Assembly (NCBI GenBank): GCA_934691725.1
Contig: CAKUTF010000002.1
Coordinates: forward strand, 34,167 to 66,166
DNA length: 32,000 nt
Direction of reading: 5' to 3'
Source of the DNA: an uncultured Fibrobacter sp.
Lineage (GTDB): Bacteria; Fibrobacterota; Fibrobacteria; Fibrobacterales; Fibrobacteraceae
Shown here: positions 1,967 to 28,078 of the stretch, one piece after another
Position numbering within the stretch: position 1 is the first letter of the stretch
How the letters are laid out: each line of letters starts with the position of its first letter
Program-made: the position numbers and the translations under genes
Notes under the pieces: generated by a model
The model's database searches: none
What the model was told of the DNA's origin: nothing
The model's input: only the letters and a program-made list of their open reading frames with translations

Positions 1967-2040
1967 GGGGATATAGCTCAGTTTGGTAGAGCGATAGGTT
2001 CGCAATCTATAGGTCAGGGGTTCGATTCCCCTTATCTCCA
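1967..2040 (+). tRNA. tRNA-Ala (anticodon CGC)
   Basis: Hand-folded cloverleaf of 74 nt. Acceptor GGGGATA/TATCTCC includes the G3:U70 alanine identity pair. Anticodon loop TTCGCAA, T-loop TTCGATT, discriminator A. CCA is not encoded. Confidence 0.9.
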
Positions 2041-2070: not shown

Positions 2071-2121
2071 GTTTTAAGACACACTCAAAAGTTCATCTAA
2101 AAACATCCTAGGGAAAACGAA

Positions 2122-2171
2122 CTGTTTTTTGCCCGCGAACGGATTTACTTGACGATGATAATCTGCGCGAC
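2122..2171 (+). repeat. left copy of a ~50-nt inverted repeat (partner at 7109-7155)
   Basis: ctgttttttgcccgcgaacggatttacttgacgatgataatctgcgcgac. The reverse complement of 7109-7155 is ctgttttttgccgcgaacgggtttatttgacgatgataatccgcgac. Alignment gives 45 identities over 47 positions plus 3 gap nt. The copy contains TTGACG-N17-TTAAAT (2149-2177). Confidence 0.9.
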
Positions 2172-2218
2172 TTAAATCCGCCAAATATGGAAATGAAGAT
2201 GAGGGCTAGATAGATTTT

Positions 2219-3496
2219 TCACTTTATGTTTTCAAATCCCTTGAAATCGGATTGCCCTGAGATTGCGGAATCCAGGTCGCTCAGGGGCATCTTGAACAGG
2301 CCTTCCCAGGCGGCTGCGTAGATGGTGTCGCCAACCACATCCAAGCCATATGTAGCATCGCAGCCTTTATCGTCACACCAGCCGAGCATCATGGCTCGCC
2401 AGCCCTTGGGAACATTTCCGTAGGGCTCTCCATAATCCCCCATATATACCTTGGGGCAATGATTCACGTTCGGAGCCTTTCCCGAAATAAAGAGGCGCTT
2501 CCCGTCGGTAACCACATTCATGATGCGAAACAAGGAGCTTCTGTATATGGTGTAGGCTGTATCCCCGTAAACCGTGACATAGGGCGGAGTAATCATGCTG
2601 TCGAGCGCGATCCAAGATTCCGAACCGTCCCATTGATAGACTCGGTCATTTGTACCGTCAACTGCAACCAGCGAACCCTTGTAGGTTACAAGATCCACGA
2701 CCTCATAGACGTCGTGATACATGGAATTCCACATCATCTTGGGGAATTTGGGAAGCTCGGTCCAGGAAAGGGATGTCCCGTCCAATTTCCAGACGCCGTC
2801 TCCGGTTCCCACATACAGGGAACCTCCCATTTCTGCTGAAGATGTAAATTGAAGCGGCACCGTATCGTCTTTATACATGTCATAGCGGATTGAAGGTGTT
2901 GGCAGGCTTCGCCAGCCGGTATCATTCTGCAAAAGGATGCTTGCTGTAACAATTTTTGTATTCAAGGTATCGGGATAGCTTCCGATACTAACAATCAGGT
3001 TTCCTTTAAATTTTTGTATTCCAATGACATAATGCCATGCCGAAGCATCCTTTTTTACAACATTCAGCTCTTTCCATTCTTTTTTTTCTGGATTATACAC
3101 CAGAACATTTCCCGTTTTATTTGTTCCGACATAAATCCCTGAGGAATCAGCGAAAAGAGAAGAATTTCTAACATAGGCCGACGTCGGCGGTACAAGGGTG
3201 TCCCAGATGCCTGAGCCGATTCTAGAAACAAATAGCCTCGGGGTATAAGTCAAAGTCGTCCACGTATCGGATTGGTTCTCTACGGGGCTTGTCCACGCGT
3301 CCATCAGGACCAGCCAGTTGCCGGAATGCGTCACTTTCTGGAGACCGCCACCCCGTTGGGTAGAAATCACGGGAGTAAAGCCCGCGCTTCGCCAGCCTAC
3401 CGTGATGGGTTCGCTTTCGTGTTTCGGGTTCACGCCAGAATCGTCTGTGCAGGCAAGGAGAGCAAAGACCGTAAAAAGCAGGTATCCCTTCTTCAT
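2219..3496 (-). CDS. lipoprotein of unknown function (repeat-rich, possibly beta-propeller-like)
   Basis: 425 aa. N-terminus MKKGYLLFTVFALLAC has a lipobox (LLAC). Its ATG overlaps the stop of the upstream gene as ATGA (3493-3496). Overlapping frames are short. Confidence 0.8.
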   Translation of the reverse strand: MKKGYLLFTVFALLACTDDSGVNPKHESEPITVGWRSAGFTPVISTQRGGGLQKVTHSGNWLVLMDAWTSPVENQSDTWTTLTYTPRLFVSRIGSGIWDTLVPPTSAYVRNSSLFADSSGIYVGTNKTGNVLVYNPEKKEWKELNVVKKDASAWHYVIGIQKFKGNLIVSIGSYPDTLNTKIVTASILLQNDTGWRSLPTPSIRYDMYKDDTVPLQFTSSAEMGGSLYVGTGDGVWKLDGTSLSWTELPKFPKMMWNSMYHDVYEVVDLVTYKGSLVAVDGTNDRVYQWDGSESWIALDSMITPPYVTVYGDTAYTIYRSSLFRIMNVVTDGKRLFISGKAPNVNHCPKVYMGDYGEPYGNVPKGWRAMMLGWCDDKGCDATYGLDVVGDTIYAAAWEGLFKMPLSDLDSAISGQSDFKGFENIK

Positions 3497-6400
3497 CTTA
3501 TGTCCCTCCGGGCATATTGTGGAACGAGTAAATCCGGACCGTCATACGCCTCGCAAGCTTCAACGGAAGGGATTTGTCCGTATATCGCGTTCCCGTCGGA
3601 ATCGACCAGGGCGATTCCGCAGACAAGCTTGTCGAACTCGCTCCAGTCGGTCAGGCGAAGACCGACATTCCCTTCCGTTACCGATTCTTTGGAATAGAGA
3701 ATATGCCTGTCGAAAAACATGTCGAGTTCCCAAACGTTCCCGCCGACATTGGTCAAGGAAGGCTTGGATTCCGGTGTGTACCAGTCTTCGGGTGGCGGCT
3801 GCAAAGTTTTCCCCACAGGGACTCTAAACCACATTTTAGCGTGGTAATTCCGAAGGTTTACACTACCCGTGTTGGAAACCGTCACCTGCGGCTTGAACAT
3901 GTTCTTTTCCCATGGGGCGGCGTCTTTCCAGGAAACCGTTCCCTTGGGCGAAGCGACAATGCCGTCATCTACGCTCTCGAACATTTTGGGTTCCGCTCCC
4001 CAGAGGATTTCGCCTCCCTTGCCATATACGACAATCTTTCGGTCTATTTTCGGCAATCCGACATTGTAATCCGCCGACCAGTCGTTTAAATGCCTGTAAT
4101 CGGACCAGTCGCCGTAATGGATTCGGATTTGCCAGCCGTCCATTCCCGGAAACACGGAACGGGCTTTCAAAACGGAATCCGAGGCGTCCAGGACGAAACG
4201 CCACTGGTCGCCACCCAGGTTTTCAAGCGTTACCGGAATCTTCGGGTAGTCGATTTCCACGACGGGTTTTCGCGACGGATCGGCTGTGAAGTAATACGCG
4301 ACCTTGAATCCTCCTATATCGTTATTCGATGAATTCGCCACAAGGATTCTCGGACGGGAAGTGTTGCTTTCTTGTTCGCCTCTCGCTTCTCGATGCATGG
4401 CGAATATCGAGGACTTGGCAAAGAACTTGTCCTTTGGCGTACTCGGAGGCGTTTGTGTCGATGGGTCTGTCGCGTTTGCTACGCCAGCGACCACTCGCGG
4501 CAGGATGTCATCATTTCCATTGCCGACTGAATAGGTGACGTTTTCCGCCAGCTTCGGCATCGGGTAGGTCTTCACATACATTTTTCCCGAATAGTTGTTG
4601 AACGAGACGGAGATGTTTTGCCCTTCGCGGGAAACCGAAGGCGTCGTCGAAATCGATGCGCCGATGACGGTGTCCAAGACGGCGTTGCCGTTTTCATCGG
4701 TATAGGTGACGAAGGAACCGGTTTTCGGCCTGTAAGTCGCCTTTAAGAAGTGAGTTCCGTCGGATACGGTCACTTCCTGCACTCCGCTTTCCGTGAATAT
4801 CGGGGCTATGTCGAAATCCCCGGCCAAGCCCACGCTTCCCTGCTCTAGGTAAACCAGTCCCGCTCCCTGTTTCTGTAAAGTCCGGTCGCAGTAGAAATCG
4901 AGTGCGCATGATATGTCCAGTCCCTGTTTTGTCGATCCGTCGTTCTTGCCTTTCACGGGCATGTGCAGGACATCTTCCCACGGGGCCAGCGCGTCGTGGA
5001 ACAAATATGGGCGAGGATCTTTAAATCCTTTTATACCGTTTGGTTCTGTTTCAGGAATAATGCCCGCATCTCGATTTATAAATTTTTGGCTGTATTCTGT
5101 TACAGCGATATCGGTTTGGGAAAACCAGTTGTCTTGAACATTAACCAGCGCGTTCCAGAGGGTATCGTTGAACTCCACGTCGCTTATTTCGGCAACGCCC
5201 TGTTTTTTCGCCATTTCCATCGCATACGTTTTAAAATAGTCCCCCGCGGCAAAACATTCCCGGCTCTCGTCGTTTTTCGCGCAGATTTCGTTTGCTTCCT
5301 CGCCCAGGGAATAAAGAAGATCGGCAAGGAACCTCTTCGTTGACGGGGAGTACAGGGGGCGCAGGGTCACGTTGGTTCCGTCCGGTCGCTTAGGGTAAGC
5401 GTTCCCTAGATTCCGTATGAATGTGCCGTTTGCGTCCAGGTGGGCTCCTGCCTTTCTGATTTTACGGGCTTCCCGCGAAACGGAAGCCATGGTTTTGATG
5501 GTGTCGAGCGTTTTTGTCACGTTGAACGGTCCCGCTCCAACGCCGTCGATATACACCTCGGGAACATATTTCCCTACATACGGTCCCTTTACTGTCAGAT
5601 ACACGTCCGTTGCCCAGTCCGTAGCCGCTCCGTATAGCCACCCCAATATGCTCGCTGCAGGAGTAAAGACCTGGAGGATTCCCAGTGGGTTGTCCAGGCC
5701 GATTTTTCCAATGCCATCGGTAAATGCGCCGGCCGCTTCGTAGGCGTAGTTGTACCAGTGCAGGTCCAGCTTGGCGGTAATCAAGTCGTGTATTTGGGGA
5801 TTTCCATTTTCCTGTGCGTCCAGGTCGTCGATAATCGGCTTTAATCCCGAAAACTTTTTCCCTATGTCTTCTGTATTTTTCACGGCAAGTTCCGAACCGA
5901 AATGGGGAGTGTCGACCGTGATGACCTTCCCGATATGGTTCGCCGCGTTTTGAGGTCCATTTAAATTATCCCCGTCAGTTTGCAAACCTCGCAGCATTTC
6001 CCTGACGACAAGCCCTCCCTGGCTATGGGCTACGATGTCCACGACCAGCTCAGGTCGATTTTTCCATCCGAGCGAGTCGTCCGAACCGTAAAAATCATCC
6101 AGGACATCAATTAGTTGTTGGTACAGCTTTCGTGATTGGGAATTCGATGCGTCATTCCCGTCCCACTCCAGTCCCGCTTCCCGCCATTTGTCTCCTTCCA
6201 TCTTGCCGGGAGCCTGGAAGAAATAGATCCCGTTACTGTTTATATGGGCTTCGGAATTGTCTAGATTCTGCATCCTGGCGATAATGTCCGGCGCAGAACC
6301 GTTTTCGTATCTTTTTACGAGTCCCTTTTGAAAGGATTCCTCCGCCTTCTTTTTGTCGCCCGAAACATCCGTTTTCGGGATGACGCCCCAGACATCGTAG

Positions 6401-7038
6401 CTGCTGTTCAGACCGTGGACAAAGATGACGGGGCGTGGCAATTTTTTACCTGGCTCGCCCTGGTAAGTCCATTCCGGGAAAGCGACCCTTTGCTTCTCCC
6501 ACGATTTAACCAAGGCTTCCCGGTCGAAAGCGCCGTCATACCCGCTGAATTCCGAACACGATTCGTCAAACCGGCCGTTATCTTTGATGCAACGAAGCGG
6601 CTTTTCCGTCCATGCGTGCGCATGTGACTTGAACTCTTCGATTTTCTCGTTGCTCGGGTTGTAGAATTCGTTTAACTTGTGCGGGTCGCTGAAAAAATAA
6701 GAATGACCGTCATACTGCAGCTTGTTCAGGCAGGTAACGCGGTACGTTATCCGGACAATGCTTACCAGACAGTAATAATGGTAAGGATCAAACAAATCGT
6801 CCTTTCCGTCCCAGTAATAGTCCGCCCTCTCGTCAACCCGGACGATTTCAAAATTCTGCACGTTTCTGCATCTGTTGTACGGTAGGTAGGTCTTGTCGTA
6901 AGGTTCCGCCCAGCGGGTATCCTCGTCTATGTCTGCCGGAAAGTCTTTGTATTTAGAAACCGCTTTGTCGTAATCCTCTTCGGCAAAAGAGGCTGAAAAC
7001 AACAATAATGTGCTAAAAATGAATGTTTTTATTCCCAT
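3493..7038 (-). CDS. secreted alpha/beta-hydrolase (lipase/esterase) with two C-terminal CBM3-like modules
   Basis: 1181 aa.
- Signal peptide: MGIKTFIFSTLLLFSASFA.
- Oxyanion-type motif VIFVHGLNSSYDVWG and nucleophile elbow VDIVAHSQGG (an AHSxG pentapeptide, as in Bacillus family I.4 lipases).
- Two C-terminal modules match my recollection of CBM3 signatures: FKVAYYFTAD ... IRIHYGDWSDYRHLNDWSADY ... IVVYGKGGEILWGAEP, and VTVSNTGSVNLRNY ... GLRLTDWSEFD ... DGNAIYGQIP. Confidence 0.85.
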   Translation of the reverse strand: MGIKTFIFSTLLLFSASFAEEDYDKAVSKYKDFPADIDEDTRWAEPYDKTYLPYNRCRNVQNFEIVRVDERADYYWDGKDDLFDPYHYYCLVSIVRITYRVTCLNKLQYDGHSYFFSDPHKLNEFYNPSNEKIEEFKSHAHAWTEKPLRCIKDNGRFDESCSEFSGYDGAFDREALVKSWEKQRVAFPEWTYQGEPGKKLPRPVIFVHGLNSSYDVWGVIPKTDVSGDKKKAEESFQKGLVKRYENGSAPDIIARMQNLDNSEAHINSNGIYFFQAPGKMEGDKWREAGLEWDGNDASNSQSRKLYQQLIDVLDDFYGSDDSLGWKNRPELVVDIVAHSQGGLVVREMLRGLQTDGDNLNGPQNAANHIGKVITVDTPHFGSELAVKNTEDIGKKFSGLKPIIDDLDAQENGNPQIHDLITAKLDLHWYNYAYEAAGAFTDGIGKIGLDNPLGILQVFTPAASILGWLYGAATDWATDVYLTVKGPYVGKYVPEVYIDGVGAGPFNVTKTLDTIKTMASVSREARKIRKAGAHLDANGTFIRNLGNAYPKRPDGTNVTLRPLYSPSTKRFLADLLYSLGEEANEICAKNDESRECFAAGDYFKTYAMEMAKKQGVAEISDVEFNDTLWNALVNVQDNWFSQTDIAVTEYSQKFINRDAGIIPETEPNGIKGFKDPRPYLFHDALAPWEDVLHMPVKGKNDGSTKQGLDISCALDFYCDRTLQKQGAGLVYLEQGSVGLAGDFDIAPIFTESGVQEVTVSDGTHFLKATYRPKTGSFVTYTDENGNAVLDTVIGASISTTPSVSREGQNISVSFNNYSGKMYVKTYPMPKLAENVTYSVGNGNDDILPRVVAGVANATDPSTQTPPSTPKDKFFAKSSIFAMHREARGEQESNTSRPRILVANSSNNDIGGFKVAYYFTADPSRKPVVEIDYPKIPVTLENLGGDQWRFVLDASDSVLKARSVFPGMDGWQIRIHYGDWSDYRHLNDWSADYNVGLPKIDRKIVVYGKGGEILWGAEPKMFESVDDGIVASPKGTVSWKDAAPWEKNMFKPQVTVSNTGSVNLRNYHAKMWFRVPVGKTLQPPPEDWYTPESKPSLTNVGGNVWELDMFFDRHILYSKESVTEGNVGLRLTDWSEFDKLVCGIALVDSDGNAIYGQIPSVEACEAYDGPDLLVPQYARRDIR

Positions 7039-7041
7039 AGA

Positions 7042-7101
7042 ATGAGAAAATAGAAATAATTTGATTGAACGATGAGAAAATAGAAATAATTTGATTGAAC
7101 G
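7042..7101. repeat. perfect tandem duplication, 2 x 30 bp
   Basis: atgagaaaatagaaataatttgattgaacg occurs at 7042-7071 and again at 7072-7101. The repeat starts 4 nt upstream of the ATG (7038, minus strand) of the hydrolase gene. Confidence 0.97.
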
Positions 7102-7108
7102 TAAAGAT

Positions 7109-7155
7109 GTCGCGGATTATCATCGTCAAATAAACCCGTTCGCGGCAAAAAACAG
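7109..7155 (-). repeat. right copy of the ~50-nt inverted repeat (partner at 2122-2171)
   Basis: See the 2122-2171 entry. The orientation is inverted, so both copies read inward toward the hydrolase-lipoprotein operon. Confidence 0.9.
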
Positions 7156-7156
7156 C

Positions 7157-7188
7157 AAAAAAAAATCTCCGGGAAACGAATCCCGGGA
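7157..7188 (-). terminator. intrinsic terminator (minus strand)
   Basis: The minus strand reads TCCCGGGA-TTCGTT-TCCCGGAGA followed by nine T (plus-strand A-run 7157-7165). The stem is 6-7 bp and GC-rich. Confidence 0.55.
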
Positions 7189-7236
7189 ACAGCCAAGTTT
7201 CTAGCTTGTTGTTTCCAACCACGAAAAGGACAAGCG

Positions 7237-7447
7237 ATGAGACTCGACCGATATCTAAGATACCAAATTAAAGCCTTGCTGGATGCCGGGCATTCGCAGA
7301 AAAACGTCGCATGTCTTCCACCATTCGTGGGAATGTGGGGCGAACGAGAGCATGAACTGGCTGACACGGCAATATCTGCCGAAAGGGACGTCCTTTAGGG
7401 ACCTGACCAGGGATTCCATCGCAACCTGTCTCTGCAAAAAATGCTAG
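7237..7447 (+). pseudogene. IS30-family transposase relic (HTH N-terminus fused to C-terminal tail, catalytic core missing)
   Basis: The frame from ATG 7237 gives MRLDRYLRYQIKALLDAGHSQKNVA, which resembles an IS30 HTH. A second frame from 7343 gives NESMNWLTRQYLPKGTSFRDLTRDSIA, resembling the IS30 C-terminal ENTNGLLRQYFPKGTD motif. Only ~210 nt remain, frames are broken, and no DDE region is present. Both comparisons are from memory. Confidence 0.5.
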
Positions 7448-7522
7448 CCAATCATTGGTTTTCAGAGAATAGACACCTTTTTTACCATTTCACAGTGCGC
7501 AAATTTGAATTTTTCCCCATAT

Positions 7523-7548
7523 AAAAAGACCTCCGCATCGCAGAGGCC
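7523..7548 (-). terminator. intrinsic terminator after the 146-aa gene
   Basis: Minus strand GGCCTCTGC-GAT-GCGGAGGTC (9 bp with two G.U) followed by TTTTTAT. It lies 25 nt after the stop codon. Confidence 0.55.
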
Positions 7549-7572
7549 TCTAAGGAGAAAGAATTTTCAGGA

Positions 7573-15719: not shown

Positions 15720-15813
15720 AAAAATTCTCCAAGAAGAAACCTTTCGGAGAAAAAATACACATAAAAAAAGAAAAGCGTTAGGCTACCTGGAAAATTCGCC
15801 CGATATTTGTTAT

Positions 15814-16080
15814 TAGTTGAGAGGATGGAATCAGTGGTCAATTAGCAATGAGTAATTAGGAGTGAGGAATTGGCTGTTTAGCGAGCCGGTGTCAGAGGTC
15901 AGCGACTAGCGAACAGTTAGGGAACAGGGAGTGGGAATTAGATTGCTGAGCGAACTGTTGCTAGAGCTTAGAGCTGAGATTTTAGAGCTTAGCAAATAGT
16001 TGATAGTGGACAGGAATCAGGACTCAGTGGTCAGAGCCTAGTTGATAGTGGATAGTTGAAAGAAAATAGGACTCAAAAAA
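15814..16080 (+). repeat. heptanucleotide NAG-N4 periodic array, sense on plus strand
   Basis: There are 19 in-phase 7-mers from 15948 to 16080, and 17 of them begin NAG (for example tagagct tagagct gagattt tagagct tagcaaa tagttga tagtgga caggaat caggact cagtggt cagagcc tagttga tagtgga tagttga). Earlier blocks use the same unit with 1-4 nt phase slips. By hand count there are 17 TAG triplets. The plus strand is strongly C-poor. No ORF is present. Confidence 0.9.
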
Positions 16081-16201
16081 GGCTCGCTCCGCGACCAATT
16101 CCTCATTCCTCATTTTCTTACCCGTCCGCGAAATATTCCCTCATCCCTAGTCCCCAAGAGCTTAAACGTCCACGGTTCTAAGCTCTCAGTTCTATCGACT
16201 A
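16081..16201 (-). repeat. heptanucleotide NAG-N4 array plus conserved core, sense on minus strand
   Basis: The minus strand, read from the TAG stop of the GGGPS-like gene, gives: tagtcga tagaact gagagct tagaacc gtggacg tttaagc tcttggg ... tagggat gagggaa ... gaggaat gaggaat tggtcgc g gagcgag cc. The plus strand here is G-poor, so composition flips at 16080/16081. Confidence 0.8.
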
Positions 16202-16957
16202 AGCTCTGACATGGATGGCATTCGCAAATTCGCGGAGAAGCCCCGGATCCTTCACTTTTTCCCAAAGCGTTCCTGTCACAATAATCTGCGCACCGGCGGA
16301 AACACGCACGGAAGCCGCTTCGGGTTCCCGGATTCCTCCCCCGGTGATAATCGTCATCTGTGTTGCCTTTCGCGTATAGGCGATATGCTCTACCGGAACC
16401 GGCGTCTCGGCACCGGAGCCTGCTTCAAGATAGACGTAACGCATTCCCATCAACTCCGCGGCGACAGAATGCACCATCGAGAGCTTCGGCTTGTTCGACG
16501 GAACGGGCATCGTGTTGCTGATATATTCCACGGCTGTGCGTTTTCCGCTGCTGATAAGCTCGTATGCCGTCGGAATCGCTTCGATGCCTAGAGACCTCAC
16601 CAGAACGCCTCCGCGGACCTGTTCGTCAATCAGATAGTTCGGGTTGCGGCCCGTCACAAGCGTCGTAAAAAGAATCGCGTCAAAGCCGGGAACCACCTGG
16701 GACGCTCCGCCCGGAAAGAGGATAACCGGAAGCGGGACCTCCTTTTTCAGTGCCAAAACCTGGGACGGAAGCTTGAAATTTCCCATGAACGATCCACCGA
16801 CGAGAAGCACATCCGCTCCGTTTTCGGCAGCAAGCGTTCCCGCTTTGAGGAGGGACGTGTCGTCCGATGTGTCGGGGTCGAGCAGCACGGCGAACAACGC
16901 GCCGCGCCTTTCGATAGCCTCGTTCAAGGCGGTTTCGGTCTTACCTATTTTAAGCAT
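16199..16957 (-). CDS. geranylgeranylglyceryl phosphate synthase family protein (GGGPS/PcrB family prenyltransferase)
   Basis: 252 aa, counting from the internal ATG at 16957 (MLKIGKTE...). Family blocks present: LLDPD, GADVLLVGGS, PVILFPGG, DAILFTTLVTGRNPNYLI, YVYLEAGSGAETPVP, IITGGGIR, IIVTGT. The 73-codon upstream extension in the ORF track is Arg/Ser/Cys-rich and overlaps the preceding gene, so I reject it. Confidence 0.87.
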   Translation of the reverse strand: MLKIGKTETALNEAIERRGALFAVLLDPDTSDDTSLLKAGTLAAENGADVLLVGGSFMGNFKLPSQVLALKKEVPLPVILFPGGASQVVPGFDAILFTTLVTGRNPNYLIDEQVRGGVLVRSLGIEAIPTAYELISSGKRTAVEYISNTMPVPSNKPKLSMVHSVAAELMGMRYVYLEAGSGAETPVPVEHIAYTRKATQMTIITGGGIREPEAASVRVSAGAQIIVTGTLWEKVKDPGLLREFANAIHVRA

Positions 16958-16985: not shown

Positions 16986-19900
16986 TTACTTGCTCTTTTT
17001 ACGGCGAACGCCCCATTTGTCGCGCATCTCTTCCTGCACTTTCTTCTGCTTGTAGCGCACGACCAGTTTGAACTCGACGATATACACGCCGGAACCGACC
17101 AGGCGCCCCGAATGGTCCTTGTAGTTCCAGTTGACGAAGACTTTCTTATCCGTCGTGAGGCAGTTTCTTCCCGCACCGAATGCCGGGCTGTTGCACGGAA
17201 TGTTGAATGTCGTATCCGTCACGTATTGTCCTAGGTTGTCAAAGTAGCTCACGCTGAAATTCACGAAGACGTCACCCGGGTCGATGCTATCGAGGACAGC
17301 CGCATCGTAATTTCCGTCCGCATCGAGTTTCGCACCGTCAATGAGCTGGGGAACAAAGCGTTCGCCGAGAGAAATCAGATGCCCGAGCGTTCCTTCGTCG
17401 CGAAGGTCCGAAGTCCGCGTCTGGTTCGGCACGTAGGAAATGGAAACCGAGTTCAGCGTACTGGTGATGTATTTTTCCGGATCATAGGATCCCATCTTGA
17501 CGGATTCCACCAGCTTTCCGAGAAGCCCGCCGATAACCACGGGAGATGCGTTTTCAACCGTCTTGTTGCCGTAGATATCCGCAATGGAAGATTTTTCTCC
17601 GCGAACGACCAGGAGAGAATCCCCGGGCACGATGCCGTCCGTCGATTCGCGCAGCACAAGGCGCACCGACTTGCCGTCTGCCGCCCAGAGCATCCGGGAA
17701 GGCCGAATATCAATCGTATCGTTTCCATGGATGTAGGCGAAGAAGTCGTTTCCGACAAGCGAAGAATAATCGACCGGTTCAGAGAACGAAACCGTGAGCG
17801 TATCGCGGGAATCGCCGTAGCGGAGCGAAGCCGCCGTGACAACCGGAGCCATCTTGTCCGCAATTGCGATTGTCTGCTGCGCAACAAAGGTGTTCCCGAA
17901 AATATCGTAGTAGGTGTAGAGCGTTGCCGCAGGAACATTCGAACCGATGCTAGTCAAGCCCGGAGCGACATTGACATTGCTTCGGACCACCCATCCGACG
18001 CTCTTCCCGTCCGCGCCCAGAATCAGGTCGCGCGGCTGCGCCTGGAGTTCGATCAAAAGCCCACGGGAACTATACCACGGGAACGAGAAGTAGAAGTTTT
18101 CAACGTCTTCCGCCGTCACCTTCGAAGAGAACCTAACCGCAACGGAATCGAGCTTGCCGTCACCGTCCGTATCGTAATACTCGACCATTTCCGCTGCCGG
18201 ATAGCGATCCGTCACTTTTACAGGGACCTGGCGTTCGTATTCCGAAGTCGCGATGTAGGAAAGATTGTGGAACGAAGCTCCCGGAGCGAGCGTCACAAAG
18301 TCCGTCCGTCCGTTGAGACCTAGCGAATCGCCAACCAGAATGATAAGATTTTTCGTCGGCAGGTAAATCTTGACCGCATCCAGGTCAAAGCCCATCGCAT
18401 TCAGCCACACGACCATCTCGGGACTGTTCAGGTCCGCAGGGATGACATCGATATTAAACTCGACGAAAAGCGAATCCCTGCCCGTCTTGTTACGAATCGC
18501 ATAGGCCTGCTTGATGACATGTGAGCCGAGGAGGAGGAGGTTCGTGCTGCGGTTATAGTTCGCACCGGTCTCTTCGCTCGTATAGGTCACGATAACCCGA
18601 GCGTTGTCCGGGAAGCGGTCCCCGGAAAGCCCGAGTTCCGCGGCGCTCGCATAGATTCTCGACCCGGATACGGTCAGCGCACCGGAAAGCGGAAGCGTGT
18701 CACCGTTTACGACCAGGGCAAGTCCCGTCGCCGAAAGCCCCGCGGGAACCGTATCGGAGAGAATCACTTCCAGGGAATCCAAAAGACCGTCATCGTCCGC
18801 ATCCTGGATGTAAGCGACTTCCGCCTTGGGAATCGGGTCGTAGAAATTGATGCCGTCAAAGATGATCAGATGACCGTCCTTGTCGGTAATGTAGATGCTT
18901 CCCACGAGAACTGTCGTGTCTGCGGAAACCCAGAACGACTGGTCCTTCCCGGTAACGCCGATGGAAATGTTCGACGCCGGCGCATCCGTATTGGAAGGAT
19001 CCTTGAAAATCAGCCCCGCGGAACCGGAGATGTAGAGCGAATCCGCATCGCCGAAGTAATCGCGAATCTTATCCGCATCGAGCTTGATTTCGATAACATC
19101 GCCGACACTGACCGATTCGCGTCCGCTAGCAGGAATCGAATCGGAGCCGTAGCTAGGCAGATCCGTCGATTGGGAATTGCCTCCAGTCACATAGGTGTTC
19201 CCGTTGATGATAACCGTTCCCGGAACAGAGGAATCCGCAGGAATCGGGATAAGCTTGGAACCGCCGATGATAAGGGTATCTCCCTTGTCGCGCTTGTCGT
19301 TTGTCGGGTAGAGGTCCGAACCGTCCTGGTTTTCCGAACCTTCTTCGCCAAATCCTTCATAGACCGTGGTGTCCGTAACCCAAGGCGGAATCCATTCGTC
19401 TCCGCCACCCTTTACCGAGCTGGAGGAATTGTTACCTGTGCCGCTCGAAGAGCCCGGATTTTCCCCGCCAGCGGAACTCGAAGAATTGCCGCTACCACCG
19501 CCATTCGAAGAACTCGAACCGGCGTCTCCCGAACCGGAAGAGTTGCCCGCACCGCTCGAAGAGCCCGGATTTTCCCCGCCAGCGGAACTCGAAGAATTGC
19601 CGCTACCGCCGCCATTCGAAGAACTCGAATTCTTGCCGTCATTGCTGGAGGAGCTTAGGTCGGAATTCCCCGAACTTGAAGATTTAGACCCCGAGCCGCC
19701 GATTGAACTGGAAGATTTACCCGAACTCGAAGATTCATGGAAAACGTTTGCGCTGGACGAGCTTCTGGAACTCGAAGAAACCAGCGTCCCCGGATTCGTC
19801 GTCGCCGAGTGGCGGTTGGAACCCGCCCCGGCAATCGGAGCGAGGTCATCCAGATAGTTATCAATCCACTGAACATGCAGGAGGATGTTGTTATCGATCA

Positions 19901-20984
19901 GCTTGTTCGGGTTCGATGTGTAATCGAGGAAAATCAGATGCCCGGAATTCGAAGCGACAAAGATATGCCCCTTGTGGTCGGCTGTCCCCTGGTCCAAAAG
20001 CCAGCGGATTTCATTGGTTCCGCTAATCGCATAGCCCTTGGTTTCGGCCCAGTTCGCCGAAAAGCTTCCTGTCATCTTGTCATCGTAAAACAGATACTTT
20101 CGCAAATCGACGTCCGCAATCACCTTGCGCGTTTTCGGGTCTATCTGCACAATGTGGGAATCGCCGAACAGGAGAATCGTATTCGAATATTCGTCAAAGC
20201 TCGCTCCGTGCGCGCCTTTCAGCGAATCGATCAGCGTCTTGGTCTTTAATCCGGTGATGTACTTAGCCGGGCATGGCCTCGTATTGACACTGCAGGTCGT
20301 ATCCGTGATGATTCCAAACTGGGCATTGCTGTTCGAATTGCGGGAAATCGTTCCCAAGTTGCTCGAACGCGTATAGAACGCCTGTCCGGAATTGTCCCAG
20401 AGGAGCGTCGTGATGTTAGACACGGAGCCATAGACATTTACCCGGCGAATCTTGCTCAGGCGATCCGATGTCGTCGAATCCGTTTCATATAAAATCAGGT
20501 TTCCCGGAATGCCCGCCGACCAGAGAACCGTATTGTCCGGATTCATCATCAGGTGGAAAGTCGAAGCACCGACTCCCGAAGAAACGGTTTTTGCGATACA
20601 CTTCGACGAAAGCGTATCCGTCGCATTCATCTTGACTTTGTAGATTTCATTGTAGTCCTGCCCGGCGACAAGAAGATCGCCGTCCGGATGGTGCACGATG
20701 CCGTCCGCACCGGGAGTTCTACAAAGCAGTCTCTTGTTGGAAAGCTTGAGGTAGCCGTTACCGTCATAGTAATAGTCGAGAGCCTTGGCGCTCTGCTGCT
20801 GAGAATAACGCGTGTAATAGACGGTTTCCTTAGTGCTCGCCGAAGGATACAGGTCGCCTACCTGCTGGATCCAGACGCCTGTCGCAGGGTTGTAGGGGGT
20901 ATTGATAGCCGGGTCCGCATAGACAAACGCGGAAAGGAACGGGACTAGTCCCAAAGCGCAAAATACTTGTTTAATCTTTTTCAT
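16986..20984 (-). CDS. giant secreted protein: N-terminal propeller-like region, Ser/Gly-rich linker, Ig-like/Ca-binding modules, conserved basic C-terminal domain
   Basis: 1332 aa.
- Signal peptide MKKIKQVFCALGLVPFLSAFVYA.
- SD GGAGGAGG 8-16 nt upstream of the ATG.
- About 130 aa of S/G/N-rich linker.
- DxDxDG-type loops: DADDDGLLDSLEV and DTDGDGKLDSVAV.
- C-terminus VNWNYKDHSGRLVGSGVYIVEFKL ... KWGVRRKKSK, paralogous to the C-terminus of the 892-aa neighbour. Confidence 0.9.
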   Translation of the reverse strand: MKKIKQVFCALGLVPFLSAFVYADPAINTPYNPATGVWIQQVGDLYPSASTKETVYYTRYSQQQSAKALDYYYDGNGYLKLSNKRLLCRTPGADGIVHHPDGDLLVAGQDYNEIYKVKMNATDTLSSKCIAKTVSSGVGASTFHLMMNPDNTVLWSAGIPGNLILYETDSTTSDRLSKIRRVNVYGSVSNITTLLWDNSGQAFYTRSSNLGTISRNSNSNAQFGIITDTTCSVNTRPCPAKYITGLKTKTLIDSLKGAHGASFDEYSNTILLFGDSHIVQIDPKTRKVIADVDLRKYLFYDDKMTGSFSANWAETKGYAISGTNEIRWLLDQGTADHKGHIFVASNSGHLIFLDYTSNPNKLIDNNILLHVQWIDNYLDDLAPIAGAGSNRHSATTNPGTLVSSSSRSSSSANVFHESSSSGKSSSSIGGSGSKSSSSGNSDLSSSSNDGKNSSSSNGGGSGNSSSSAGGENPGSSSGAGNSSGSGDAGSSSSNGGGSGNSSSSAGGENPGSSSGTGNNSSSSVKGGGDEWIPPWVTDTTVYEGFGEEGSENQDGSDLYPTNDKRDKGDTLIIGGSKLIPIPADSSVPGTVIINGNTYVTGGNSQSTDLPSYGSDSIPASGRESVSVGDVIEIKLDADKIRDYFGDADSLYISGSAGLIFKDPSNTDAPASNISIGVTGKDQSFWVSADTTVLVGSIYITDKDGHLIIFDGINFYDPIPKAEVAYIQDADDDGLLDSLEVILSDTVPAGLSATGLALVVNGDTLPLSGALTVSGSRIYASAAELGLSGDRFPDNARVIVTYTSEETGANYNRSTNLLLLGSHVIKQAYAIRNKTGRDSLFVEFNIDVIPADLNSPEMVVWLNAMGFDLDAVKIYLPTKNLIILVGDSLGLNGRTDFVTLAPGASFHNLSYIATSEYERQVPVKVTDRYPAAEMVEYYDTDGDGKLDSVAVRFSSKVTAEDVENFYFSFPWYSSRGLLIELQAQPRDLILGADGKSVGWVVRSNVNVAPGLTSIGSNVPAATLYTYYDIFGNTFVAQQTIAIADKMAPVVTAASLRYGDSRDTLTVSFSEPVDYSSLVGNDFFAYIHGNDTIDIRPSRMLWAADGKSVRLVLRESTDGIVPGDSLLVVRGEKSSIADIYGNKTVENASPVVIGGLLGKLVESVKMGSYDPEKYITSTLNSVSISYVPNQTRTSDLRDEGTLGHLISLGERFVPQLIDGAKLDADGNYDAAVLDSIDPGDVFVNFSVSYFDNLGQYVTDTTFNIPCNSPAFGAGRNCLTTDKKVFVNWNYKDHSGRLVGSGVYIVEFKLVVRYKQKKVQEEMRDKWGVRRKKSK
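19441..19629. repeat. in-frame tandem repeat (period 111 bp) inside the Ser/Gly linker
   Basis: 78 nt at 19441-19518 are repeated at 19552-19629 with a single mismatch (accaccg vs accgccg). They encode SSNGGGSGNSSSSAGGENPGSSSG twice. Confidence 0.92.
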
Positions 20985-27994: not shown

Positions 27995-28078
27995 CCCGCT
28001 AAACGCTTCCCAAAAGTTTAAATGTCCACGGCTCTGACCACTGCTCACTGACCACTAGCCACTGAACCTAGACGTCTG
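27995..28078 (-). repeat. second heptad element with the conserved 28-nt core
   Basis: The minus strand reads: cagacgt c taggtt cagtggc tagtggt cagtgag cagtggt cagagcc gtggaca tttaaac ttttggg aagcgtt tagcggg. Five YAG heptads are in exact phase (28030-28064). The core at 28009-28036 matches 16153-16180 at 23 of 28 positions. Confidence 0.8.

Follow-up and report, generated by a model that had tools for sequence, protein, structure and literature searches.

The window analysed here is a 32,000-nucleotide (nt) stretch of DNA from an uncultured Fibrobacter sp. (GenBank assembly GCA_934691725.1, contig CAKUTF010000002.1, positions 34,167 to 66,166 of the forward strand), and our subject is an inverted repeat in it that flanks a two-gene operon next to a tRNA-Ala gene. 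A preliminary description had paired plus-strand positions 2122-2171 with the reverse complement of 7109-7155, had located the operon between the two copies, tRNA-Ala beside the left copy and an IS30-like remnant from 7237 onwards, and had seen no clear target-site duplication. All of these positions were confirmed, and no duplication was visible to us either. The alignment of the two copies has 45 identities in 47 positions, with 3 gap nt, and the pair is the top-scoring inverted repeat of the window (52 bits, against a maximum of 30.2 bits in 30 window shuffles). The homologous repeated unit is limited to 2122-2167 and 7111-7155. The apparent 2-nt gap at its inner end, which had been taken for a deletion in the right copy, is an alignment artefact arising from tip variants (CTGCG, CCGCG and CCGTG).

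The operon is read from the minus strand. Its first gene (3493-7038) encodes a secreted esterase/lipase-family protein of 1181 amino acids with an alpha/beta-hydrolase core and a CBM3-like region (Pfam DUF7379, DUF676, Lipase_2 and CBM_3, all weak), and its second (2219-3496) a 425-amino-acid lipoprotein with the lipobox LLAC and weak Kelch-like repeats (weak Kelch match in Pfam). The two open reading frames (ORFs) overlap by 4 nt, and both sit between the repeat copies. The leader contains a perfect 30-nt tandem duplication (7042-7101; Tandem Repeats Finder, 2.0 copies, 100%). A putative operon promoter on the minus strand (-35 TTTACG at 7105-7100, -10 TATTTT at 7082-7077) reads TTTACG-N17-TATTTT, the same as in a related copy of the operon at another locus (L031; compared loci are designated by L numbers). 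The duplication copies the spacer and the -10 TATTTT of this putative promoter, and the related copy has the unit once. With such a promoter, placed between the right repeat copy and the ATG, the operon mRNA would not include the right copy. A comparison of base composition with the flanks had been proposed. Operon GC is 0.44-0.55 and that of the flanks 0.52-0.58; the lipoprotein gene is mildly lower, a shift that is not diagnostic.

To the left lie tRNA-Ala (anticodon CGC; 1967-2040, plus strand; ARAGORN, and Rfam RF00005 at 71 bits) and, past it, a bidirectional terminator-like hairpin at 2042-2067, found by a terminator scan of both strands. An ENA metagenome scaffold (L001) matches the window at 100% identity, and two more strains are 99.6% identical over the region. 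The comparison genomes are all metagenome contigs, so that copy numbers and paralogy are not settled by them.

Composition and orientation of the two copies

IS30-family insertion sequences (IS) are about 1.0-1.25 kb long in total and have one open reading frame. Their transposase binds the terminal inverted repeat of the element. The tips of an IS are its outer ends, and the transposase gene reads inward from the left-end tip. Each copy of the window repeat is composed of a 27-nt left terminal inverted repeat and ~19 nt of sub-terminal sequence of such an element. A fuzzy scan with two 27-mers (2 mismatches) placed a left end at 7111-7137 on the plus strand and another at 2141-2167 on the minus strand. 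Its matches were confined to IS-related sites, with 0 in 219 kb of shuffled sequence.

The right copy (7111-7155, plus strand) is the left end of a resident IS30-family relic, as indicated by the terminal-repeat scan, by homology to a better-preserved element (L022) and by alignment with three further loci (L007, L018 and L019). It comprises the terminal repeat at 7111-7137, with its tip at 7111, and the sub-terminal sequence at 7138-7155. In the three-locus alignment the homology does not stop after 47 nt; it extends through a leader hairpin, the ATG and the first 25 codons. The 81-nt leader (7156-7236, plus strand) is conserved in L007, L018, L019, L021 and L022, and its hairpin at 7169-7186 reads on the minus strand as a terminator with a T-run in the terminator scan. 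It is followed on the same strand by the 25 N-terminal codons of an IS30-family transposase, the start of a helix-turn-helix (7237-7311; translation, and homology to the relic ORFs P0001-P0003), and in another frame by a C-terminal transposase fragment (7321-7413; …SWECGANESMNWLTRQYLPKGTSF…). BLAST showed continuous homology between 7110-7311 and positions 9-207 of the L022 element at 88.6% identity, and between 7321-7413 and its positions 482-574 at 87%; ~270 nt of the L022 element are absent from the window relic between the two fragments. The C-terminal fragment matches NCBIfam NF033563 (IS30 family transposase) at profile positions 221-256 with E=3.9e-8 and 33 bits, a score under the 80-bit cutoff because the fragment is just 36 residues long.

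The relic at 7111-7413 is hence made up of a terminal repeat, an 81-nt leader, 25 N-terminal and 31 C-terminal codons, ~300 nt of recognisable sequence in all. It has neither the catalytic core nor the right end and keeps only the left end; no right-end repeat was detectable at 7414-7572, where Smith-Waterman scores fell below the shuffle mean. The preliminary description had treated the IS30 relic as a separate neighbour, 82 nt past the right copy. What separates this copy from the transposase ATG is no mere spacer: these 81 nt are the element's own leader, conserved together with the repeat in other genomes, and the relic and the right copy are one element.

On the left, the copy at 2122-2167 (minus strand) is an orphan left end, recognised by the terminal-repeat scan (0 matches in shuffles) and by BLAST to positions 14-54 of the L022 element. 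Its terminal repeat occupies 2141-2167, with the tip at 2167, and its 19-nt sub-terminal part 2122-2140; family homology ends at 2122. The tip is abutted by a 16-nt IS30-family right-end tip (GCGACTTAAATCCGCC; 2167-2182, plus strand), which matches the right ends of L021 and L022 at 16/16 positions with a score of 32 against a shuffle maximum of 28. From 2183 on the DNA is unique, as it is past four other right-end copies, and all five right-end copies diverge directly past CCGCC. IS-derived sequence on this side reaches 2182. The left end is joined to the truncated right-end tip with the tips of both pointing in the same direction, that is, in a nested arrangement. The sequence TTGACG-N17-TTAAAT, noted earlier as a possible promoter, is present as it was written; its TTAAAT belongs to the fused right-end tip, and the promoter rule of our scan rejects it.

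The pieces that adjoin the IS sequences are a 52-nt filler (2070-2121) that separates the left copy from the tRNA terminator, a 46-nt segment that includes the last 3 codons and the stop of the lipoprotein gene (2183-2228), and the segment between the relic and renewed collinearity with relatives (7414-7489). None of the three had a significant match among the compared loci. A match of 14 nt to the lipoprotein gene of the other operon type was in the wrong orientation and had E=0.04. A reverse-complemented right end was not detectable at 2041-2122, with scores below the shuffle mean.

The geometry of the pair follows from these positions. The tips at 2167 and 7111 face the operon, and the interiors run outward, on the left toward the tRNA and on the right through the leader to the transposase. 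The operon is thus not part of either IS fragment, and the pair does not form the outward-facing terminal repeats of one cargo element. We conclude that the inverted repeat is very probably a pair of IS30-family left ends facing the operon, one belonging to the adjacent relic and the other an orphan, the remainder of a second element in the opposite orientation, that is joined to a right-end tip. Between themselves the window copies show 91% identity, compared with 80-87% to copies elsewhere (81-87% for the left copy), which suggests a common source; by this measure they belong to the same IS sub-lineage and are mutually closest relatives.

This geometry bears directly on the proposal that 2122-7155 is a single non-autonomous cargo element with outward-facing terminal inverted repeats. 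The pair does bracket exactly the operon and its leader, and the segment is absent from sister lineages. As a cargo element, however, the arrangement would be inside-out: its tips, as established from six other copies and from two relics with complete ends, point at the operon; the right copy runs on outward into its own leader and transposase start; the boundaries of the variable islet against relatives are 2069 and 7490 rather than 2122 and 7155; and no target duplication was found. We regard this proposal as highly improbable.

The IS30-family element in Fibrobacter genomes

The preliminary description had suggested checking whether the repeat is multi-copy. It is an IS end that recurs at other Fibrobacter loci. 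A scan of one genome per species with a 20-nt core as a single exact-match pattern gave 17 matches, four of which (L011, L018, L007 and L019) had extended similarity to the window copies. L011 and L018 come from a Fibrobacter genome assembly, and L007 and L019 from gut bins labelled otherwise. A protein search with the relic fragments returned three short relic ORFs only; their contigs hold the better-preserved elements L021 and L022, in which both ends are kept. The module of terminal repeat, leader and ATG recurs at unrelated loci in L007, L018, L019 (twice), L021 and L022.

From L021, L022 and L011 the left end of the element reads CACGGATT(A/C)TCATCGTCAAGTAAATCC, then GTTCGTGGCTGAAAACAG, the leader and the ATG, and the right end reads …AAATTTACTTGGCGACTTAAATCCGCC (in short form, left CACGGATT… and right …AATCCGCC). 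Compared as an inverted repeat, the left and right ends match at 18/27 positions, and independent copies of the element diverge right outside the tips. The copies of this exact family are all internally deleted, at 165-700 nt, and the L021 and L022 versions, at 360-700 nt, keep both ends. The L022 relic matches NF033563 at 80.8 bits (cutoff 80). Next to the relic in L021 is an intact relative (L021:1384-2340) that spans ~1.07 kb and scores 277 bits, with HTH_38 and rve domains.

The element resembles described members of the family such as IS30, IS1655, ISApl1 and IS4351, in which one transposase combines a helix-turn-helix at the N-terminus with a catalytic core at the C-terminus. With L021 and L022 included in the family evidence, the transposase has an N-terminal helix-turn-helix and an rve-type core matching the family model, and the fragments in the window match NF033563 as well. 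Shared too are the imperfect ~27-nt terminal inverted repeats at both ends, of which the left one shortly precedes the transposase start, with functional sub-terminal sequence adjoining in the known elements, and the liability to deletions, inversions and insertion beside the element's own ends (PMC9333248; PMC10916398). The element is apparently an undescribed member of the IS30 family, with relics scattered in gut and rumen Fibrobacter genomes. Its end sequences (CACGGATTATCATCGTCAAGTAAATCC … AAATTTACTTGGCGACTTAAATCCGCC) let annotators spot relics and miniature derivatives that are now called hypothetical ORFs of 50-100 amino acids.

L011 contains a ~165-nt miniature derivative (4090-4255) between genes for proteins of 1190 and 145 amino acids, consisting of a right end, a partial leader with half of the hairpin deleted, and a left end. 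The left end has the same CTGCG tip variant as in the window, followed by a degenerate stretch that contains TTAAAT. With a 12/22 match, this stretch may represent the same junction of left end and right-end tip as in the window. The 1190-amino-acid neighbour prompted the idea that L011 is an orthologous locus, which was dropped as the proteins are unrelated. This derivative, and the internally deleted L021 and L022 with both ends kept, are comparable to the miniature inverted-repeat transposable elements that derive from IS; the window pair is unlike these in being two left ends, 5 kb apart, with tips facing each other.

L007 (bin Alistipes onderdonkii) and L019 (bin Methanomethylophilaceae archaeon) show the same IS30-relic locus beside a RhuM-like gene, with an IS30 module of ~90% DNA identity to the Fibrobacter element. 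This binning may reflect mis-binning or horizontal spread of the element.

Two other identities were considered for the repeated unit. Fragments of IS256 type (Transposase_mut) abut the IS30 start in L018 (5340-5560) and lie directly upstream of a related hydrolase gene in L037/L038 (6405-6749), so that several IS families cluster around these operons. The L018 fragment, which adjoins the unit, raised the question of an IS256-family end; this was rejected, as the two are separated by the IS30 start codon, on the opposite strand, and as the IS30 context is complete in L021 and L022. Because of the similarity of its core GATGATAATC to half of a Fur site, the unit was also considered as a conserved promoter or Fur-box element. 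This too was rejected, since in Fibrobacter the unit always comes joined to the leader and transposase start of IS30. The 20-nt pattern also caught classical Fur boxes (TGATAATCATTATCA) at L005, L013 and L015, in promoters of Lysinibacillus, Paenibacillus and Cytobacillus (Bacillaceae and Paenibacillaceae). The likeness of GATGATAATC to a Fur half-site is probably coincidental.

The same context bears on whether the repeats act in RNA, either by pairing between transcript ends, as had been suggested, or as a conserved promoter or terminator cassette. In favour of such a role, there is an outward-facing TTGACG in the unit and a minus-strand hairpin with a T-run in the leader beside it, and the left copy probably lies in the 3' untranslated region of the operon, because no terminator precedes the tRNA hairpin. 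Pairing between the copies is nevertheless made unlikely by the best promoter candidate, which lies downstream of the right copy and would keep the latter out of the mRNA. At other loci the unit is consistently joined to IS30 leader and transposase sequence and not to particular gene classes, and an Rfam scan found two tRNAs only and no other known RNA family. A role in RNA hence seems far-fetched.

The tRNA-Ala site, the operon at other loci and their history

Relatives were picked via the UDG gene (85-98% protein identity); the UDG and hydrolase homologues that bear source names are all labelled Fibrobacter or Fibrobacteraceae. The flanks of these relatives show 83-91% DNA identity to the window up to 2069-2074 on the left, where collinearity ends in BLAST against L026-L029 and L034, and from 7490 on the right. 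The synteny comparison that had been proposed earlier thus delimits a lineage-specific islet by tRNA-Ala, with nothing or another operon version between the shared flanks. In L029 and L030 (UDG 85%) there is only tRNA between tRNA-Ala and a gene for a 146-amino-acid protein (332 nt). L034 and L035 (UDG 90%) have a hydrolase of 1210 and a lipoprotein of 414 amino acids, 45% and 34% identical to those of the window. L026 and L027 (UDG 89%) have the L034-type lipoprotein alone, which in L026 is 34% identical to that of the window, and in L028 (UDG 92%) it is a pseudogene. Across these sister loci the flanking DNA remains 88-91% identical. IS30 end sequence was found at none of the sister loci L026-L030, L034 and L035, and no IS sequence was found at the islet boundaries 2069 and 7490.

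In the closest strain, L039, which is 96.5-97% identical in DNA, both repeat copies and the operon are present and oriented as in the window. This strain was examined for a less decayed state, which was not found: the same two copies are present, plus an unrelated 1041-nt insertion of the IS256 family (a Zn-binding variant, IS1249-like; L039 10834-11874). This element entered the 52-nt filler at window 2087-2093, with a 7-nt duplication AAAAGTT, and its transposase is split into ORFs of 207 and 59 amino acids. Contigs L040-L042 end at the IS256-family element, and one of its ends (GGCTTATATGACAAAAGGG) also occurs in L026, L027 and L028, where it separates the lipoprotein gene from the gene for the 146-amino-acid protein. 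On this sequence comparison, the tRNA-Ala/YceG interval is a general IS hot spot that is variable between lineages. Swapping, loss or replacement of an esterase/lipase and lipoprotein there between close lineages bears on the variation of surface and secreted enzymes in a major fibre degrader.

In lying directly downstream of a tRNA gene, and in being present in some relatives and absent from others, the variable segment recalls tRNA-linked islands mobilised by integrases. Unlike in these, the boundary lies past the tRNA terminator and not within the tRNA; no integrase was found among the window ORFs, and the 22-mer at the 3' end of the tRNA had no second copy at <=3 mismatches. An island of this type was accordingly rejected.

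The repeats had also been read as recombination sites for inversion of the 5-kb segment, which could then act in phase variation or as an expression switch. In principle, rare inversion by homologous recombination could occur between 46-nt inverted copies that are 91% identical. Against this, the segment has one and the same orientation in at least four assemblies (L001, L002, L003 and L039), and a survey of ORFs and Pfam domains revealed no invertase or recombinase gene nearby. The putative promoter, moreover, lies inside the segment, so flipping would not switch expression, and the copies are 9% diverged, so they are not being homogenised. We consider inversion hardly credible.

The operon type of the window was found at four other loci elsewhere, two of them beside IS fragments. 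The closest copy (L031; 92% protein identity, and 90.9% DNA identity over 2229-7067) is next to LepA, and a copy with 86-92% DNA identity (L036) is next to PRPP synthase. More distant are copies with 72% DNA identity (L037 and L038), which have MurJ on one side and rplM on the other and are immediately preceded by an IS256-type fragment, and copies with 70% DNA identity (L032 and L033), which have UvrD-like and PDZ genes as neighbours and an IS30 relic at a distance of 6.8 kb. The DNA shared among the loci amounts to about the two genes plus very short flanks. Upstream, the match between the window and L031 runs through CTTTACG (7100-7106), 4 nt from the IS tip at 7111. Downstream, the homology of L031, L032, L036 and L037 all ends at 2229, within the last three codons of the window lipoprotein gene, and L031 and L036 share just 16 nt past their stop codons. 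L031 has its own 21-nt IS30 right-end fragment 93 nt upstream of the hydrolase ATG.

Starting from the observed identity and orientation of the repeats, their multi-copy nature and the variability of the locus, the arrangement as a whole is probably best explained as IS30-family remnants, the scar of past transposition at an insertion hot spot. It is no new kind of mobile element, genetic switch or mechanism. IS30-family elements transpose by copy-out-paste-in via a joined-ends intermediate, produce insertions, adjacent deletions and inversions, and prefer their own ends as target (PMC9333248). Two IS30-family copies can mobilise the genes between them and then decay, as in ISApl1-mcr-1-ISApl1 (PMC10916398). 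The most likely single history that we infer, with about an even chance of being correct, is that an IS30 pair moved the operon and subsequently decayed. Relocation is favoured by the IS ends at the operon-homology breakpoints, together with the occurrence of the operon type at other loci in lineages of ~90% DNA identity and the IS30 fragment in L031. IS30-family copies would first have come to bracket the window's version of the operon; the block would then have been placed or rearranged downstream of tRNA-Ala, displacing the version of the sister lineages; and the IS copies would finally have been eroded by deletion, fixing the operon in place. As no transposase and no matched outward-facing ends are left, nothing here can transpose today.

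Tn6330 (ISApl1-mcr-1-pap2-ISApl1) provides a model, with an IS30-family pair flanking a short block of cargo. Once mobilisation has taken place, its IS copies undergo loss or truncation and the cargo becomes fixed with only IS scars, according to PMC10916398 (citing Snesrud et al. 2018). The differences are that the IS copies of Tn6330 are direct repeats, whereas the window remnants are inverted with their left ends inside; that the intact form and target duplications have been observed for Tn6330, whereas the window shows the decayed state only; and that its cargo is a resistance gene, whereas the window has a housekeeping-type Fibrobacter esterase/lipoprotein pair.

Several findings weigh against this history and the reading of the remnants behind it. 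Related cargo does occur at different genomic sites in related genomes, as for a composite transposon. In place of two near-complete IS copies, though, there is only a 46-nt end on the left and a ~300-nt relic on the right, and no outer IS ends within one target-site duplication were found. With the outer parts of both copies missing, a composite transposon is not demonstrable. The window copies are non-functional fragments, unlike functional members of the family, and no 2-3-bp target-site duplication is visible in the flanks of L021, L022, L011 or the window copies, which is weak evidence against membership in the IS30 family because all copies at hand are relics. An intact copy of this exact IS was recovered neither by the protein search, with its three relic ORFs, nor by two metagenome DNA scans, which were empty. 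The product described for IS30 self-end targeting is a tip-to-tip, end-to-end junction of left and right ends (PMC9333248), from which the left copy differs in that it abuts, and is nested with, a truncated right-end tip. The left operon-homology breakpoint at 2229 sits 46 nt from the IS tip and not adjacent to it. The hydrolase family is large (108 homologues in the Fibrobacter search, named esterase/lipase family protein), so that the same operon at five loci may partly reflect paralogy and genome rearrangement. Finally, the site is a general IS hot spot, as seen from the IS256 insertion in L039 and an end of that element in L026 and L028, and this makes two independent IS30 insertions credible.

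The last point leads to a less probable but serious alternative, namely that two or three independent IS30-family insertions at an IS-prone site flank an operon that arrived otherwise, for example by homologous recombination of a divergent allele, and that their inverted layout is coincidental. The locus evidently collects IS, with a target duplication in the case of the L039 insertion, and target choice in the IS30 family is selective, with the elements' own ends among the preferred sites (PMC9333248). The replaced segment stops exactly at the conserved flanks 2069 and 7490, as recombination in the flanks predicts, and the 46-nt distance on the left also fits this alternative. It is opposed by the right operon-homology breakpoint, just 4 nt off the IS tip, by the 91% mutual identity that assigns both ends to one sub-lineage, and by L031, where a related operon copy at another locus is also beside an IS30 end fragment. 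Relocation by an IS30 pair is the history that we prefer on balance.

A broader proposal, which we put forward as rather unlikely, is that the esterase-lipoprotein pair is a recurrently mobile two-gene cassette in Fibrobacter, possibly carried by inside-out IS30-family ends. Its boundaries are tight, reaching from ~25-70 nt ahead of the start codon to ~16 nt beyond the stop, and the pair occurs at five loci in five lineages. The segment between inverted left ends would be captured via joined-ends chemistry and self-end targeting, and the nested junction at 2141-2182, possibly also that in L011, could be a footprint of such an intermediate.

Other repeats in the window

Three further repeat structures were observed outside the islet. 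A gene-free stretch of ~400 nt at 15790-16210 contains nested imperfect inverted repeats (15854-15887/16081-16114 at 79% and 15963-15992/16178-16207 at 73%) and a 7-nt TAGAGCT array; one arm motif (…CAGTGGTCAGAGCC) recurs inverted at 28030-28063, beside tRNA-Gly. A 22-nt inverted repeat (1330-1351/22490-22511; 95% identity, 36 bits against a shuffle maximum of 30) has one arm inside the UDG gene and could be a coding coincidence. At 19425-19629 two 94-nt copies with 93% identity, 111 nt apart, lie inside an ORF of 1332 amino acids (16986-20984, minus strand), the product of which looks like an internally repetitive protein.

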